A stretch of DNA of 49,784 nucleotides from IMG/VR virus record IMGVR_UViG_2879736954_000010. One strand, given 5' to 3'. This stretch comes from a virus. Lineage: Duplodnaviria > Heunggongvirae > Uroviricota > Caudoviricetes. The translations under genes were made by a program, and so were the position numbers. The notes beneath the pieces are model-generated. The model was not told where the DNA came from. It did not search any database and saw nothing but the letters and a program-made list of their open reading frames with translations. This document shows positions 26,116-33,419 of this stretch, piece by piece. Position 1 is the first letter of the stretch; every line of letters begins with the position of its first letter.

Positions 26116-26310
26116 TCAGGCTACCTCACCCGTCCCGGATACCGAGAACGTTTCGTCCAGCAACTGGAGAGAGTTCGACGGTGGCATCATTGCCCATGCC
26201 GGAGGCGCTGGAGGTTTCGGCTGAGGATGGCACAGGGCATTTTCCTTTGACGAGCACCCGACCACCATTATCAAGCTTGCGCCGAAGAGCATCATTTTCA
26301 GCTTTCGCAT
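26116..26310 (-). CDS. Rz1: Rz1-like o-spanin lipoprotein embedded in Rz (C-terminus replaced by IS600-derived codons)
   Basis: Signal/lipobox ...LIMVVGCSS followed by proline-rich [13 protein letters not shown], as lambda Rz1; ORF runs 12 nt into IS600. Confidence 0.6.
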
Positions 26311-26530
26311 CAGCTAACTCCTTCGTGTATTTAGCATCGAGTGCATCAGCATCACGCTGGCGCTGCTGCATGTCAGTAATGGTTGCGTTCGCCAGCTTCA
26401 GTTCTCCGGCGTTTTTGTCGCGCTGCTCTTTGTAGGTAATGGCGTTATCACGGTAATGATTAACAGCCCATGACAGGCAGACGATGATGCAGATAACCAG
26501 AGCGGAGATAATCGCGGTGACTCTGCTCAT
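26129..26530 (-). pseudogene. Rz: Rz i-spanin, 3'-truncated by IS600
   Basis: [34 protein letters not shown]...[17 protein letters not shown] matches lambda Rz; the C-terminal ~22 codons, present in the second copy at 33244-33489, are missing. Confidence 0.75.
26130..26305. repeat. 176-bp Rz/Rz1 segment, inverted-repeat copy A (partner 33244-33419)
   Basis: Encoded peptides (…[58 protein letters not shown]…) identical in both copies on opposite strands. Confidence 0.8.
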
Positions 26531-27060
26531 TGATCTATCCCCCAACAGGCTAATGCGCTTTCCTGGTCACGACGAATAACCTGTCCATAGCAGTTATTTG
26601 AACGTATGCGGCAATCGCGCCCAACATCTTTTATCCACCAGCGAATCGCCTCGCATGCGCCCTTACGATCACCGGCATTCAGCCGCTTATAAAACGTCGA
26701 CGGGAAACACTTACCGGGGCCAATGTTATAGGGGCAAAATGACGCTATACCCGCTTTCTGGGGTTCGGTCAGAGGTACTTTAATATTGCGCTCCACCCAT
26801 GCCAGCGCCTTATCACGTTCAATAGCGTTAACCTGGTCACATTTTTCCTTCGACAGCTTCATTCCCGGTATGACAGGCTTACCATCCACCATTGTGGCAC
26901 CACGACAGATGGTCCATATGCCAGAACCATCACGGTATGCCGTTGTGTGATTACCCTCTTTTTCGTTCAGAAACTGGTCAAGTATCTGGGGAGCAGACGC
27001 GCCTGCGGCAATCAGCGCCAGAACAGCAGCCGACAGGCCGTATTTGATTTTTGCGCTCAT
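26527..27060 (-). CDS. R: SAR endolysin (T4-lysozyme-like muramidase, phage 21 R-type) with N-terminal signal-anchor-release segment
   Basis: N-terminal hydrophobic stretch [15 protein letters not shown] followed by EGN[17 protein letters not shown], similar to P21 R (…[23 protein letters not shown]…). Confidence 0.85.
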
Positions 27061-27125
27061 GGATATTTATCAGGATTTATCGGCAACAAATAACGAGCCA
27101 ACTTATATACGCCTTTTAAGATAAG

Positions 27126-27755
27126 TCAGCCCCGGCTGGATCCAGTCATCAGGCTCTTTCTTAAAGGGGGAGTATTGAAATCACGAAGAAGAGCCTCCCG
27201 CACCGCAGCATCCATGTCTGCACCACTGGCAAGTGCTTCAATCTCTGCCGCCACCTGCAAATACCCCATGCAACGGCCAATGCGTTTCATAACTCTGGTG
27301 TTTTCGTCTTTCAGGCATCTGATAGCGAGATTAATAATTTTCAGGCAGTGATGATGCGATGCCCGGACAGGTTTTCCGTTCTCATAAACGACGAACTCAC
27401 CCTCTTCACAGGAAACCCTGAAAGGCCGATGGGGTTCCTGGTCTTTATCCGGTGCAGACGCAATAAAATCACTTTTATGCTCTTCCTCTCCGGCACTGTT
27501 AACCGTAATGACGTACTCAGGCCGCAGGTAAGCCGCCTCTTTTTCTGACAATGCGGCCGGTAAAAACTTTTCCTGCAAAAACTTCATAAAAGTCTCGTGA
27601 GCGACTTTGTGGCAGTAATCGTAAATCGCCGCATAATGCTCATCGCGGCGTTTGTTTTCATCTTCAGAACTCACCAACGCCGACAATTTTTTATTAAGCT
27701 CAGTGATTTCATTTTCCAGGTGATTGAATCGCTGATTCATTTCTTCATGCTTCAT
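27126..27755 (-). CDS. Hypothetical protein (209 aa) inserted between holin and endolysin; N-terminal coiled coil, Cys/His-rich C-terminal half
   Basis: Long ORF translationally coupled to holin stop; no family recognised by eye. Confidence 0.5.
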   Translation of the reverse strand: MKHEEMNQRFNHLENEITELNKKLSALVSSEDENKRRDEHYAAIYDYCHKVAHETFMKFLQEKFLPAALSEKEAAYLRPEYVITVNSAGEEEHKSDFIASAPDKDQEPHRPFRVSCEEGEFVVYENGKPVRASHHHCLKIINLAIRCLKDENTRVMKRIGRCMGYLQVAAEIEALASGADMDAAVREALLRDFNTPPLRKSLMTGSSRG

Positions 27756-27758
27756 TAT

Positions 27759-27974
27759 TTACTCTCCCCGTGCAGCCTTACGCTTGTCTTCTCTTATTTT
27801 GAAATACAGATTCGTCAGATAAGTCAGAAGCCCCAGAAGCAGACTTCCCAGCACACCAATCGCAGCCCACTGTGATGGCCTGACCTGATCCAACCACTGC
27901 AAAAACCAGTAGCCGGCACTGCCGGCGGAGGTGCCGTAGGCAATGCCCGTTGAAATTTTGTCCATGGATTTCAT
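27759..27974 (-). CDS. S: S21-type pinholin with dual-start motif (MKSM)
   Basis: [31 protein letters not shown]...[35 protein letters not shown] is nearly identical to phage 21 S as I recall it. Confidence 0.85.
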
Positions 27975-28267
27975 AGCCTCACCTCCGCAAATAACGGATG
28001 GCGTAGTTTTACACTGAGAAATGAAAGGGATTTGAAAAGAAAAAAACGCAAAAGCGGGCGAAACGATATATACAGTAAGGAAAGCACTCTATCCAACAAA
28101 CCACCCACAGTTAATCGGAATAAAAGCAGAGTGCTTATGAATGATCGCACGCCCGAAGGTTAGTATTTCTGCACAGCAATTTTGCAAAAAAAGGCGATCA
28201 TTCATAACTTAAACGTCTTTCAGTCACTCCGGGATTTCCCATCATCGCAGACTGAAAGACTCTGACT

Positions 28268-31090: not shown

Positions 31091-31965
31091 GCAGCCACAC
31101 CTCTGATACGAGAACGGTAACTGGGCCAGTTAAACGACAACCAGTTGCGTCCCCCGTCTGTGATCCTGTCGGCAATTCGGGGACTGATGAACGCCCACAA
31201 CTCTTCCGGTGAGAGGTTACTGATCAGAATGGTGGGCAAGATACTTTCGTACCTGGCGTTGATAATTTCCTGCAAAATAGCCATTTCAGCCGCGCTGCCA
31301 AACTGAACGCCAACTTCGTCGATGATCAGCAAATCCATTGACGCATAACGCTCAATAACTTCATCCGCTGTTTTTTCGCTGTCATTCCGCCAGCAATTTT
31401 TCACAGCACGGGTAAGGCGCATCACGTCGGTGATCTCCACACTGGCCAGATAGTTACGGATGATGTGTTTTGCCATAGCCACAGCCAGATGATTTTTTCC
31501 GGTACCACAACTGCCGGTCATAACAAGACTGGTACCGTTCTCCAGCATATCTGGCCAGTTCTCCGCATAGCGGCGACAGGCCGCAAGATTTCTGGCTGCG
31601 CCAGGATTAACCTCCAGATAATTATCAAACTCGCAGTCCCGAAAACGCAGGGCAATTCCGGCGTTATCAGTCAGCTCTTCCGCCTTGATGGACGACAGCT
31701 CCATGGTCAAATCGTTGGCCTCAGCGATTAAGCAGTCAGGGCAGCATGAAATTTCTTCTCTGTCCTCGCCATTACGATCGCTCCACACCAGTATATGCGT
31801 GTGATATTCGCCATGTTTTTCGCAATATCCGCGACCTTCACGCATCAGGCAGGAACGATAAGGCCATGGCTTTTCGCCCTTCTGAGCAAATGCAATCTCT
31901 GCCCGTAACTCATCCATTCGCGCCTGTAGTCTTTTTTGTTGTTCACGCAGGTTAAACGTCATCAT
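31087..31965 (-). CDS. DnaC/IstB-like AAA+ helicase loader with N-terminal Cys/His cluster
   Basis: Walker A GSCGTGKNHLAVAMA and Walker B DLLIIDEVG; start placed at MMTFNL because upstream ORF codons lie inside the IS911 left end. Confidence 0.75.
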   Translation of the reverse strand: MMTFNLREQQKRLQARMDELRAEIAFAQKGEKPWPYRSCLMREGRGYCEKHGEYHTHILVWSDRNGEDREEISCCPDCLIAEANDLTMELSSIKAEELTDNAGIALRFRDCEFDNYLEVNPGAARNLAACRRYAENWPDMLENGTSLVMTGSCGTGKNHLAVAMAKHIIRNYLASVEITDVMRLTRAVKNCWRNDSEKTADEVIERYASMDLLIIDEVGVQFGSAAEMAILQEIINARYESILPTILISNLSPEELWAFISPRIADRITDGGRNWLSFNWPSYRSRIRGVAA

Positions 31966-32057
31966 CGCTGTCACCTCAGAATGTCTGAAGTGGCACACTG
32001 AATTTGGCCACCTGAACAGAGGTGATATGCTCACCTCAGAACAACACAGGTGCTCCA

Positions 32058-32360
32058 ATGAAAAAAAGAAATTTTAGCGCAGAGTTTAAACGCGAATCCG
32101 CTCAACTGGTTGTTGACCAGAAATACACGGTGGCAGATGCCGCCAAAGCTATGGATGTTGGCCTTTCCACAATGACAAGATGGGTCAAACAACTGCGTGA
32201 TGAGCGTCAGGGCAAAACACCAAAAGCCTCCCCCATTACCCCGGAACAAATTGAAATCCGTGAGCTCAGGAAAAAGCTACAACGCATTGAAATGGAGAAT
32301 GAAATATTAAAAAAGGCTACCGCGCTCTTGATGTCAGACTCCCTGAACAGTTCTCGATAA
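32058..32360 (+). CDS. IS911 OrfA
   Basis: [46 protein letters not shown]... Confidence 0.85.
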
Positions 32361-32386
32361 TCGGGAAACTCAGAGCGCATTATCCT

Positions 32387-33226
32387 GTGGTCACACTCTG
32401 CCATGTGTTCGGGGTTCATCGCAGCAGCTACAGATACTGGAAAAACCGTCCTGAAAAACCAGACGGCAGACGGGCTGTATTACGCAGTCAGGTACTTGAG
32501 CTACATGGCATCAGCCACGGTTCGGCCGGAGCAAGAAGCATCGCCACAATGGCAACCCGGAGAGGCTACCAGATGGGACGCTGGCTTGCTGGCAGGCTCA
32601 TGAAAGAGCTGGGGCTGGTCAGCTGTCAGCAGCCGACTCACCGGTATAAACGTGGTGGTCATGAACATGTTGCTATCCCTAACTACCTTGAAAGGCAGTT
32701 CGCCGTGACCGAGCCAAATCAGGTGTGGTGCGGTGATGTGACCTATATCTGGACGGGTAAGCGCTGGGCGTACCTCGCCGTTGTTCTCGACCTGTTCGCA
32801 AGAAAACCAGTGGGCTGGGCCATGTCGTTCTCGCCGGACAGCAGGCTCACCATGAAAGCGCTGGAAATGGCATGGGAAACCCGTGGTAAGCCCGGCGGGG
32901 TGATGTTCCACAGCGATCAGGGCAGTCATTATACGAGCAGGCAGTTCCGGCAGTTATTGTGGCGATACCAGATCAGACAGAGTATGAGCCGGCGCGGAAA
33001 CTGCTGGGATAACAGCCCAATGGAACGCTTCTTCAGGAGTCTGAAGAACGAATGGATGCCGGTGGTGGGTTACGTAAGCTTCAGCGAGGCAGCTCACGCC
33101 ATAACGGACTATATCGTTGGATATTACAGCGCACTAAGACCGCACGAATATAACGGTGGGTTACCCCCAAACGAATCGGAAAATCGATACTGGAAAAACT
33201 CTAACTCGGTGGCCAGTTTTTGTTGA
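32387..33226 (+). CDS. IS911 OrfB (DDE transposase domain; normally expressed as OrfAB fusion by -1 frameshift)
   Basis: 279 aa IS3-family OrfB. Confidence 0.85.
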
Positions 33227-33243
33227 CCACTTCAGCCACTTCA

Positions 33244-33419
33244 AAAGCTGAAAATGATGCTCTTCGGCGCAAGCTTGATAATGGTGGTCGGGTGCTCGTC
33301 AAAGGAAAATGCCCTGTGCCATCCTCAGCCGAAACCTCCAGCGCCTCCGGCATGGGCAATGATGCCACCGTCGAACTCTCTCCAGTTGCTGGACGAAACG
33401 TTCTCGGTATCCGGGACGG
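33244..33419. repeat. 176-bp Rz/Rz1 segment, inverted-repeat copy B (partner 26130-26305)
   Basis: See copy A. Confidence 0.8.

Follow-up and report, generated by a model that had tools for sequence, protein, structure and literature searches.

Truncated Rz/Rz1 spanin genes in an exact inverted repeat, a probable by-product of IS-driven decay of adjacent prophages in a Shigella flexneri-type chromosome

Recombination among homologous prophage modules is a source of chromosomal inversions and mosaic prophages, for example among the lambdoid prophages of Escherichia coli O157. The insertion sequence IS911 reportedly can target its insertion to the ends of other IS911 copies, which is said to have been described by Loot and colleagues in 2002 and 2004, Turlan and colleagues in 2004 and Rousseau and colleagues in 2008. 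Inversions, translocations and deletions mediated by insertion sequences have been documented between S. flexneri strains (PMC1550401; PMC8072062), and phage lambda Rz/Rz1 is the two-component spanin with embedded gene architecture (PMC5295617, PMC6139136).

The locus described here lies in a window of 49,784 nt (the whole stretch of DNA that was analysed) and resembles each of these systems in part. Its Rz and Rz1 genes resemble the lambda spanin in their family matches (Rz, PF03245: copy A, E=2.4e-23 over profile positions 1–104 of 126, copy B, E=7.2e-12 over positions 45–125; embedded Rz1, PF06085: E=4.1e-21), in the N-terminal transmembrane segment of Rz, in an Rz1 whose ORF, nested in Rz in the +1 frame, specifies a lipoprotein with a lipobox, and in the placement of the locus after holin and endolysin. 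Unlike in lambda, both loci are truncated: in copy A the last ∼22 codons of Rz are gone together with the end of Rz1, while copy B lacks the Rz start, the transmembrane segment and half of the coiled coil. As in prophage-module recombination, a conserved Rz is common to several prophages of one genome, and S. flexneri drafts have a hybrid Rz that joins modules from two types of prophage; here, however, the homology is trimmed to 176 nt by two IS elements and no recombinant of the IS-bearing form was seen. The joints, like those of other S. flexneri IS rearrangements, lie at IS copies without target duplications and have partners that vary by strain, but they are small in scale, fall inside prophage remnants and leave overlapping gene fragments as an inverted repeat. 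Finally, as in end-targeting by IS911, an IS911 end sits at or next to another IS911 inverted repeat (in the window, IRR lies 9 bp inside IRL; in the arrangement termed Type I below, IRR is exactly at the IRL tip position), although these are natural chromosomal products from which intervening DNA is lost, and the 9-bp offset is not tied to published in vitro products.

Two truncated spanin loci and the repeat they share

A repeat search of the window yielded one inverted pair, 26130–26305 and 33244–33419, of 176 nt and 100% complementary, with 6938 nt between the arms. No other inverted repeat in the 49.8 kb reaches 60 nt, and a perfect 176-mer rules out a chance origin in 50 kb. The initial annotation had reported this inverted 176-bp Rz/Rz1 repeat, and pairwise alignment of the arms bears it out, with 100% identity over 176 nt that ends sharply at both repeat ends. 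Arm A on the minus strand and arm B on the plus strand both cover Rz nt 226–401, including most of the embedded Rz1, and the repeat is the overlap of two truncated Rz/Rz1 spanin loci. One of its edges is an IS600 end and the other an IS911 end plus 9 bp; the arms being bounded by IS ends, the ends of the repeat are IS breakpoints and not limits of homology. We conclude that the repeat is very probably a by-product of IS-driven decay and not a functional element.

Each copy keeps what the other has lost, just as first proposed. Copy A, behind holin and lysozyme genes, is Rz nt 1–401 and is cut by IS600. Its truncated Rz′ (26126..26530, minus strand) has 134 aa with the N-terminal transmembrane segment and part of the coiled coil; it comprises codons 1–134 of 156, runs up to IS600 and takes its stop codon from the first IS600 bases. 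The annotations of S. flexneri 301 and 2457T include an identical protein, and the private substitutions of copy A, G42 and D60, recur in the S. flexneri drafts that join the left module to DedA-terS and in no E. coli relative. The nested Rz1′ (26116..26310, minus strand, +1 frame) carries the lipobox LIMVVGC, and IS600 sequence replaces its final ∼8 codons. Copy B, which leads into DedA-terS-terL::IS2, is Rz nt 226–471, cut by an IS911 insertion. Its ‘Rz 3′ fragment (33244..33489, plus strand) holds codons ∼76–156 and the native stop without start codon or transmembrane segment, and the Rz1 ORF within it (33254..33445, plus strand) is missing its first five codons but retains an in-frame Met-Met, the lipobox and the native C-terminus. 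Thus the 18-residue transmembrane segment of an Rz-family i-spanin is present in copy A only, whereas the o-spanin hallmarks (motif LIMVVGC-SS, ORF nested in the Rz +1 frame) are present in both arms. Alignment with intact genes leaves neither copy with a complete reading frame, A stopping at codon 134 of 156 and B beginning at about codon 76, and as judged from these frames a working spanin would be impossible from either remnant. For annotation, both ‘lysis protein’ fragments are best treated as pseudogene remnants of two different spanin loci and not as a duplicated or invertible functional unit.

Prophage modules and IS joints in the window and in other strains

The module between the arms (26527..31965, minus strand) carries lysis, tRNA, Q and replication genes: lysozyme (26527–27060), a 209-aa ORF (27126–27755), holin (27759–27974), four tRNAs (28267–28577), Q (28777–29157), ninH, DnaB (29699–31090) and a DnaC-like loader (31087–31965). 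Beyond copy B lies a right-hand prophage module (33578..37004, plus strand) with DedA (33578–34090, minus strand), a terS-like gene (34285–35049) and a terL interrupted by IS2 (35668–36998). An intact 5-bp duplication, GCAAT, flanks that IS2, and E. coli FDAARGOS_943 shares the insertion with the window.

Two copies of IS600 and one of IS911 lack such duplications, and are for that reason taken to be rearrangement joints. IS600 copy 1 (24865..26128, minus strand, orfA and orfB intact) links the C-terminal half of Nu1 to Rz nt 401, with GTT on one side and CCC on the other, and ∼2.5 kb found here in E. coli relatives is absent from the window. Copy 2 (42743..44006, minus strand), a direct repeat of copy 1 with five mismatches, cuts the right-hand prophage off against a Mu remnant, again without a target duplication (AAT/ATA). 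Length (1264 bp), TGAGGT... ends and ORFs of both copies fit IS600, of the IS3 family; the duplication does not. IS911, of the same family (31986..33234, plus strand, 1249 bp where ∼1250 bp is typical), has both inverted repeats, with ends TGAAGTGGC.../...ACCACTTCA, and an intact orfA (100 aa) with an overlapping, intact orfB (279 aa), and is ∼99% identical to annotated IS911. Its IRL adjoins a GAC site 20 bp upstream of the DnaC-like gene, and its flanks are GTC versus GCC (or AAA past 9 bp). The first reading of the flanks needs partial amendment: IS600 does cut copy A, but IS911 does not directly abut copy B, which begins 9 bp past the IS911 end.

These 9 bp, GCCACTTCA (33235..33243, plus strand), are the IRL tip of an earlier IS911 that lay in opposite orientation at the AAA site of Rz. 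They are not native Rz, which reads GCTGATGCG or GCCAATGCG there, nor a general feature of IS911, the motif being in none of the fetched loci. An in-place flip of IS911 via its own terminal repeats was likewise rejected, because a complete IRR follows the 9 bp.

Other closed S. flexneri genomes have both Rz remnants in common but vary at the IS911 joint, where three more arrangements occur. Only in the window is IS911 reversed and accompanied by the 9-bp remnant. S. flexneri locus L026 retains the ancestral simple insertion, Rz5′..GCGAAA|IS911|AAAGCTG, with its AAA duplication, and loci L019–L028 all read ...GTGTGCCACTTCA|AAAGCTG, that is, a <IRL|AAAGCTG junction. The GAC site is empty in L001, L002 and L029, and which IS911 end the same dnaC flank is joined to, IRR or IRL, depends on the strain. 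Several closed genomes have the order Rz3′-IS911a-5.0 kb-IS911b-dnaC, with an intervening segment of 5013 bp. The joint beside the DnaC-like gene is a recurrent, strain-variable breakpoint. In compact and datable form, the region records how IS911, IS600 and IS2 inactivated S. flexneri prophages step by step.

Origin of the two remnants

Very probably the repeat arose during IS-driven decay of adjacent defective prophages in an S. flexneri-type chromosome, the split Rz remnants being an ordinary and already known kind of genome decay. The starting point would have been two paralogous lambda-type spanin loci, each an Rz with embedded Rz1, in two lysis cassettes: the first Rz, preceded by holin, 209-aa ORF and lysozyme, would have shared its module with Q and replication genes of the DnaB/DnaC type, and the second would have lain ahead of the DedA-terS-terL packaging genes of a second prophage. 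IS911 would then have entered the second Rz at nt 225/226, giving the AAA duplication, and IS600 would have come to sit at nt 401/402 of the first. Later events mediated by IS911 and IS600 would have dropped the distal part of the first Rz and the proximal part of the second and set the two remnants head to head. The 176 nt between the two IS breakpoints are what both still have in common. The anatomy of the locus, both target sites and the variation among strains are seen directly in the sequences; the order of these events is inferred, and the available sequences do not fix it.

A second Rz gene is needed, since copy A continues straight across the IS911 target site: it is uninterrupted over the AAA site at which copy B is cut, copy B is uninterrupted over the cut site of copy A, and one Rz cannot give both. 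In E. coli relatives the two flanking modules are prophages at separate loci, up to several Mb apart. The left flank carries terminase and lambda-like structural genes, and the inter-arm segment is colinear with it. Single prophages of E. coli VL46 and RMDEC332 have this order, and the left module is also colinear with a single prophage in CFSAN029787. Copy B is colinear with its right flank, and in FDAARGOS_943 and 944 the right module lies in a distinct prophage that has a holin, an RrrD lysozyme and an Rz of its own. This favours one of the two origins first suggested, namely two related lysis cassettes from different prophages.

An origin in one prophage, with a local inversion, is unlikely. 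The replication–lysis and DedA-terS-terL::IS2 modules would have been a single prophage in which an IS911 pair (at GAC and the Rz AAA site) inverted the module, copy A later acquiring its distal part by recombination from a neighbouring lambda-like Rz before IS600 trimming. Draft contigs L029–L034 carry just this joined order, E-dnaC-...-R-Rz(full)-DedA-terS-terL::IS2, with the same IS2 insertion and 99.9–100% identity to both window halves; the modules are adjacent in both S. flexneri forms, against their wide separation in E. coli; and an inversion between inverted IS911 copies at GAC and AAA predicts exactly the Type I joint, dnaC..GTC|IRR>IS911<IRL|AAAGCTG. Even so, a second Rz gene would still be needed, plus one extra recombination. 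Moreover, L026 carries its AAA insertion not in the P1-type cassette but in one whose lysozyme is RrrD-type and whose Rz 5′ allele differs, and in closed genomes DUF1133′ and holin′ remnants of that RrrD-type cassette adjoin IS911a. Since S. flexneri drafts join the left module to DedA-terS via an intact Rz, that module may, on sequence grounds, once have been part of the right-hand prophage and not of the left lambda-like one. Both this and the sharing of G42 and D60 with those drafts speak against the two-prophage account.

Recent gene conversion between the inverted copies in this genome, as a source of their 100% identity, is most unlikely. At nt 350, 394 and 396 copy A does agree with copy B against the closest E. 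coli P1-type Rz, but the same three states occur in the P1-type cassette of FDAARGOS_944 and in two FDAARGOS_943 prophages; they are a common allele, and conversion is not needed. Indeed, two different prophages of FDAARGOS_943 carry the identical 176-mer, so perfect identity of the arms needs no special cause, and E. coli has P1-type cassettes that carry these alleles at the variable sites. The arms agree perfectly because the lambdoid prophages of E. coli and Shigella commonly have this allele over the shared part of Rz.

Within the two-prophage account, the window's IS911 joint most likely derived from the arrangement Rz3′-IS911a-5.0 kb-IS911b-dnaC. A transposase-type deletion of ∼6.25 kb would have fused the IRR of IS911b to the IRL of IS911a at a position 9 bp in. 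We infer this from the geometry and from one SNP: IS911 position 1145 is C in the window, as in IS911b, while IS911a mostly has T. It is possible, if doubtful, that the 9-bp remnants and the variable dnaC flank are footprints of end-targeted transposition by IS911 with deletion of the intervening DNA. Motifs similar to the 9 bp are rare in E. coli: of 5,421 places with an IS911 end, only a handful have one. E. coli MB57 and plasmid pCUVM3.1 carry comparable 9-bp tip remnants outside a complete IRR, at loci unrelated to this one. If true, end-targeted deletion would be a recurrent route of Shigella genome reduction, distinct from simple homologous recombination between IS copies, and these cases would show in nature an IS911 reaction known to date mainly from plasmid assays.

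No second example of the window's exact IS911 junction turned up in 18 S. flexneri loci, in 5,426 E. coli genomes or in two contig collections, with searches of species-representative genomes and metagenomes empty; a search for its exact chimeric ORFs found none, and the reciprocal joint is not among the IS911 OrfA contexts in CP034931. That uniqueness would suit an assembly or cloning artefact of this record, the true structure being Type I or Type II, yet we rate this as highly improbable: the junction requires novel sequence in the reads, which repeat collapse does not make, and the tip remnants in MB57 and pCUVM3.1 are similar.

Inversion between the arms

The alternative first suggested, inversion of the 26.1–33.2 kb segment via the repeats, is not supported, as both flanks are colinear and the crossover product is in no contig longer than 20 kb. 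Local inversion by the 176-nt arms was rejected as the origin of the present order; the flanks match their own prophages, and a single Rz cannot account for both remnants. In the S. flexneri drafts the left module (99.97% identical) is colinear with DedA-terS through an intact Rz, and the long contigs of this kind carry neither IS911 nor IS600, which means that they do not represent the window's structure in flipped form. A reversible switch, in which inversion restores a full holin–endolysin–spanin cassette joined to the right-hand prophage, is barely credible: by sequence reconstruction, crossover between the arms would give an intact 156-aa Rz plus Rz1 and invert 6.9 kb, and that exact protein is present in 524 blocks of S. 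flexneri drafts, but most of these are contigs of 2–5 kb and none exceeds 20 kb (hence no IS-bearing flip was seen), whereas the split form is found in 23 blocks (Rz′) and 64 blocks (copy B Rz1) with Mb-size contigs, the long draft contigs have no IS911 at GAC, both prophages are defective (IS2 in terL, truncated Nu1), and no invertase or site-specific recombinase gene is among the ORFs in or beside the segment, those between the arms all being assigned apart from the 209-aa ORF, which has no family match.

The minimal processing length for RecA recombination is ∼25–50 bp. The arms (176 nt, 100% identical, inverted, 6.9 kb apart) have the homology for RecA-dependent inversion and, from length and identity, are plausible substrates for further events of this kind. 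For assembly and structural typing, an exact 176-nt inverted repeat together with IS copies breaks or misleads short-read contigs here. The orientation of the segment differs between strains, namely between the window and the S. flexneri drafts.

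Paired Rz remnants and their IS boundaries

A search of the whole window for inverted repeats of at least 60 nt returned a single pair, at 26130–26305 and 33244–33419, whose 176-nt arms are 100% complementary and separated by 6938 nt, and in pairwise alignment identity is lost abruptly at each edge. The near-identical inverted Rz/Rz1 repeats proposed in the initial annotation are thus borne out, as are the truncations it described: copy A (minus strand; PF03245, E=2.4e-23) spans Rz nt 1–401 and lacks the Rz C-terminus, while copy B (plus strand; PF03245, E=7.2e-12) spans nt 226–471, native stop included, and lacks the Rz start. 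The Rz1 lipoprotein ORF (PF06085, E=4e-21; lipobox LIMVVGC) is nested in Rz in the +1 frame. Judging by what each retains, neither remnant can give a spanin, since copy A is without the C-terminal end of both Rz and Rz1 and copy B is without the Rz start and transmembrane segment. The 134-aa product of copy A (Rz') is identical to proteins from S. flexneri 301 and 2457T, and many closed chromosomes encode it; some accessions carrying it are given as S. flexneri in two papers (PMC9455713; PMC5429569).

Arm A stops distally at the IRL tip of IS600 copy 1 (24865–26128), and arm B begins, on its proximal side, at the junction with IS911 (31986–33234). As both edges are IS junctions, the 176 nt represent the part of Rz between IS breakpoints at nt 225/226 and 401/402, and the block is not delimited by sequence divergence. 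IS911 does cut copy B, as first described, but does not abut it directly, as 9 bp (GCCACTTCA, 33235–33243) intervene.

Origin of the two lysis cassettes

Copy A runs uninterrupted over the AAA site at which copy B is cut, and copy B likewise continues past nt 401/402, the point of the cut in copy A. Two Rz genes are therefore needed, since each copy spans the cut of the other and inversions alone cannot duplicate 176 nt. Of 5,426 E. coli genomes, 5,312 contain Rz-like sequence, with a median of three places per genome, and in E. coli FDAARGOS_943 two distinct prophages share the same 176-mer. Copy A differs at three sites from the closest E. coli Rz of a P1-type cassette (the left-module kind, vs the RrrD-type of the right prophage), and at these sites it carries the common allele, which is also present in a P1-type cassette of FDAARGOS_944. 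On such comparisons the perfect identity of the arms is unremarkable; gene conversion may have occurred but is not needed to explain it.

Gene order in the window runs from ipaH through a lambda-like tail–head–gpA block to the C-terminal half of Nu1 and the first IS600; then, on the minus strand, through Rz', lysozyme, a 209-aa ORF, holin, four tRNAs, Q, ninH, DnaB and a DnaC-like loader to IS911; then, on the plus strand, through 'Rz, DedA, terS, terL (interrupted by IS2) and portal and capsid genes; and finally through a second IS600 (42743–44006, a direct repeat of the first) and a Mu remnant to dcuC and pagP. In E. coli genomes, mostly of enteroinvasive type, the left block as far as the DnaC-like gene forms a single colinear prophage, and in these relatives the position of the window's IS600 is occupied by about 2.5 kb comprising the Rz 3' end, ParD/RelE, KilA-N and the Nu1 5' half. 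The right block belongs in E. coli relatives to a different prophage at a separate locus, which has a holin, an RrrD lysozyme and a complete Rz of its own. The earlier suggestion of two related lysis cassettes is thus supported both by the reciprocal spans of the remnants and by the residence of their flanking modules in separate E. coli prophages.

Several other genes in these blocks deserve mention. The 209-aa ORF (27126–27755, minus strand), between holin and lysozyme, has no Pfam or NCBIfam match and is conserved in every P1-type cassette encountered in either E. coli or S. flexneri. The lambda-like prophage has at its tail-fibre end an ipaH-type effector gene (1060–2823, plus strand; NEL E3 ligase domain and LRR_TTSS) and, in its structural region, three direct repeats that have diverged from one another (19543–19927; 94 nt, 66–73%, 141–150 nt spacing). 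The Mu-like remnant (44004–46530), between IS600 copy 2 and dcuC/pagP, contains a truncated MuA transposase (544 aa, minus strand) and a Mu c-type repressor-like ORF.

IS911 joints and possible inversions

All ten loci fetched via the Rz1 of copy B (L019–L028) have the IS911 IRL abutting Rz nt 226 (...GTGTGCCACTTCA/AAAGCTG), and one of these, L026, keeps a simple insertion with AAA duplicated (Rz5'...GCGAAA/IRR-IS911-IRL/AAAGCTG). These junctions identify the window's 9 bp as the last nine bases of an earlier, oppositely oriented IS911. This tip is immediately external to a complete IRR, and similar tips outside a complete IRR, constant in length at 9 bp, occur in the E. coli MB57 chromosome (L009 2531–2539, ACCACTTCA) and plasmid pCUVM3.1 (L010 2531–2539, GCCACGTCA). 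A second IS911 target, GAC, located from uninterrupted E. coli sequence (...AAACTGAC/ATTCTG...), lies 20 bp upstream of the DnaC-like gene.

Comparison among S. flexneri loci (L011–L018, L024, L025) places the GAC flank (31983–31985 in the window) on IRR in Type I (Rz3'-TTT/IRL-IS911-IRR/GAC-dnaC) and Type III (DUF3440/IRL-IS911 with group II intron-IRR/GAC-dnaC). It lies on IRL in Type II (Rz3'-TTT/IRL-IS911a-IRR/DUF1133'-holin'-IS600-Toprim'/IRR-IS911b-IRL/GAC-dnaC), where IS911a and IS911b are separated by 5013 bp, and in the window (Rz3'-TTT/9 bp of IRL/IRR-IS911-IRL/GAC-dnaC). In homologous recombination between IS copies each flank stays with the same IS end, so a flank that varies by strain between IRR and IRL implies at least one end-specific event beyond homologous recombination. 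From the sequence of the joint, the simplest reading would be a deletion from Type II, in which IS911a from nt 10 to its end and the 5.0-kb segment (about 6.25 kb) would have been lost, with IS911b then connected, through its IRR end, to a point 9 bp within the IS911a IRL. One SNP, at IS911 position 1145 (C in the window and IS911b, mostly T in IS911a), agrees with such a deletion. IS911 reportedly uses its own ends as targets.

At the GAC site of CP178302 (L016 3324–4551), the IS is only about 88% identical to IS911a of related S. flexneri, which makes it another variant of the IS911 family at this joint. One S. flexneri genome has a group II intron reverse-transcriptase gene between Q and holin (L011 6377–7798), and another has one within the IS911 of the dnaC joint (L013 2445–3968).

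The 176-nt arms have the length that RecA-dependent recombination needs. No invertase gene is present. A crossover between the arms would flip 6.9 kb to yield a complete Rz1 and a 156-aa Rz combining the 5' part of copy A (with private G42 and D60) and the 3' end of copy B. That exact protein is recorded as 'lysis protein [Shigella flexneri]' on 373 contigs (524 blocks), all under 20 kb; the split forms (Rz' in 23 blocks, the Rz1 of copy B in 64) include Mb-size contigs. The longest contigs with the 156-aa Rz (L029–L034) have the order NinB...302-aa-DnaC-DnaB-Q-holin-209aa-lysozyme-Rz-DedA-terS-terL::IS2, and are 99.97% identical to window 31985–26130 and 99.9–100% identical from 33244 on. They have neither IS911 at GAC nor IS600, and so represent IS-free prophages with colinear modules, not flips of the window structure. 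Since these drafts join the lysis–replication module directly to DedA-terS-terL::IS2, a rival history is conceivable in which the module was once in the right-hand prophage and was then inverted by an IS911 pair, although such a history still requires a second Rz gene. Inversion through the repeats themselves, raised in the initial annotation, is not supported, the predicted protein being confined to contigs under 20 kb and the longest of these being IS-free.

IS2 and IS600, and further IS hits on Rz

IS2 (35668–36998) interrupts the gene for the PBSX-type terminase large subunit and is flanked on each side by an undamaged copy of its 5-bp duplication, GCAAT. The insertion is shared with E. 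coli FDAARGOS_943 and the S. flexneri draft contigs and is therefore older than the other rearrangements. In contrast, no 3-bp duplication flanks IS911 (GTC vs GCC or AAA) or either IS600 (GTT vs CCC; AAT vs ATA), which argues that these are rearrangement joints and not simple insertions. The two IS600 copies are full-length (1264 bp), directly oriented, 17.9 kb apart and differ at 5 positions; as a recombination substrate this pair is larger than the 176-nt arms, and recombination between them would remove both arms along with IS911, the whole lysis–replication module and what is left of the right-hand prophage.

The event is of a well-known kind, IS-mediated prophage pseudogenization and rearrangement in Shigella (PMC1550401; PMC8072062), here affecting spanin genes of the ordinary lambda type (PMC5295617; PMC6139136). 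As in that IS-driven decay, the window's prophage genes are IS-cut and rearranged; the remnant of an IS911 end and the swapping of ends at the GAC flank are the only mildly unusual details. Independent IS strikes on Rz in enteroinvasive E. coli and Shigella involve IS911 at three positions, IS600 and IS66 (L002 7342–8972; L006 7073–8403; L026 and L028 ~1591–5847).
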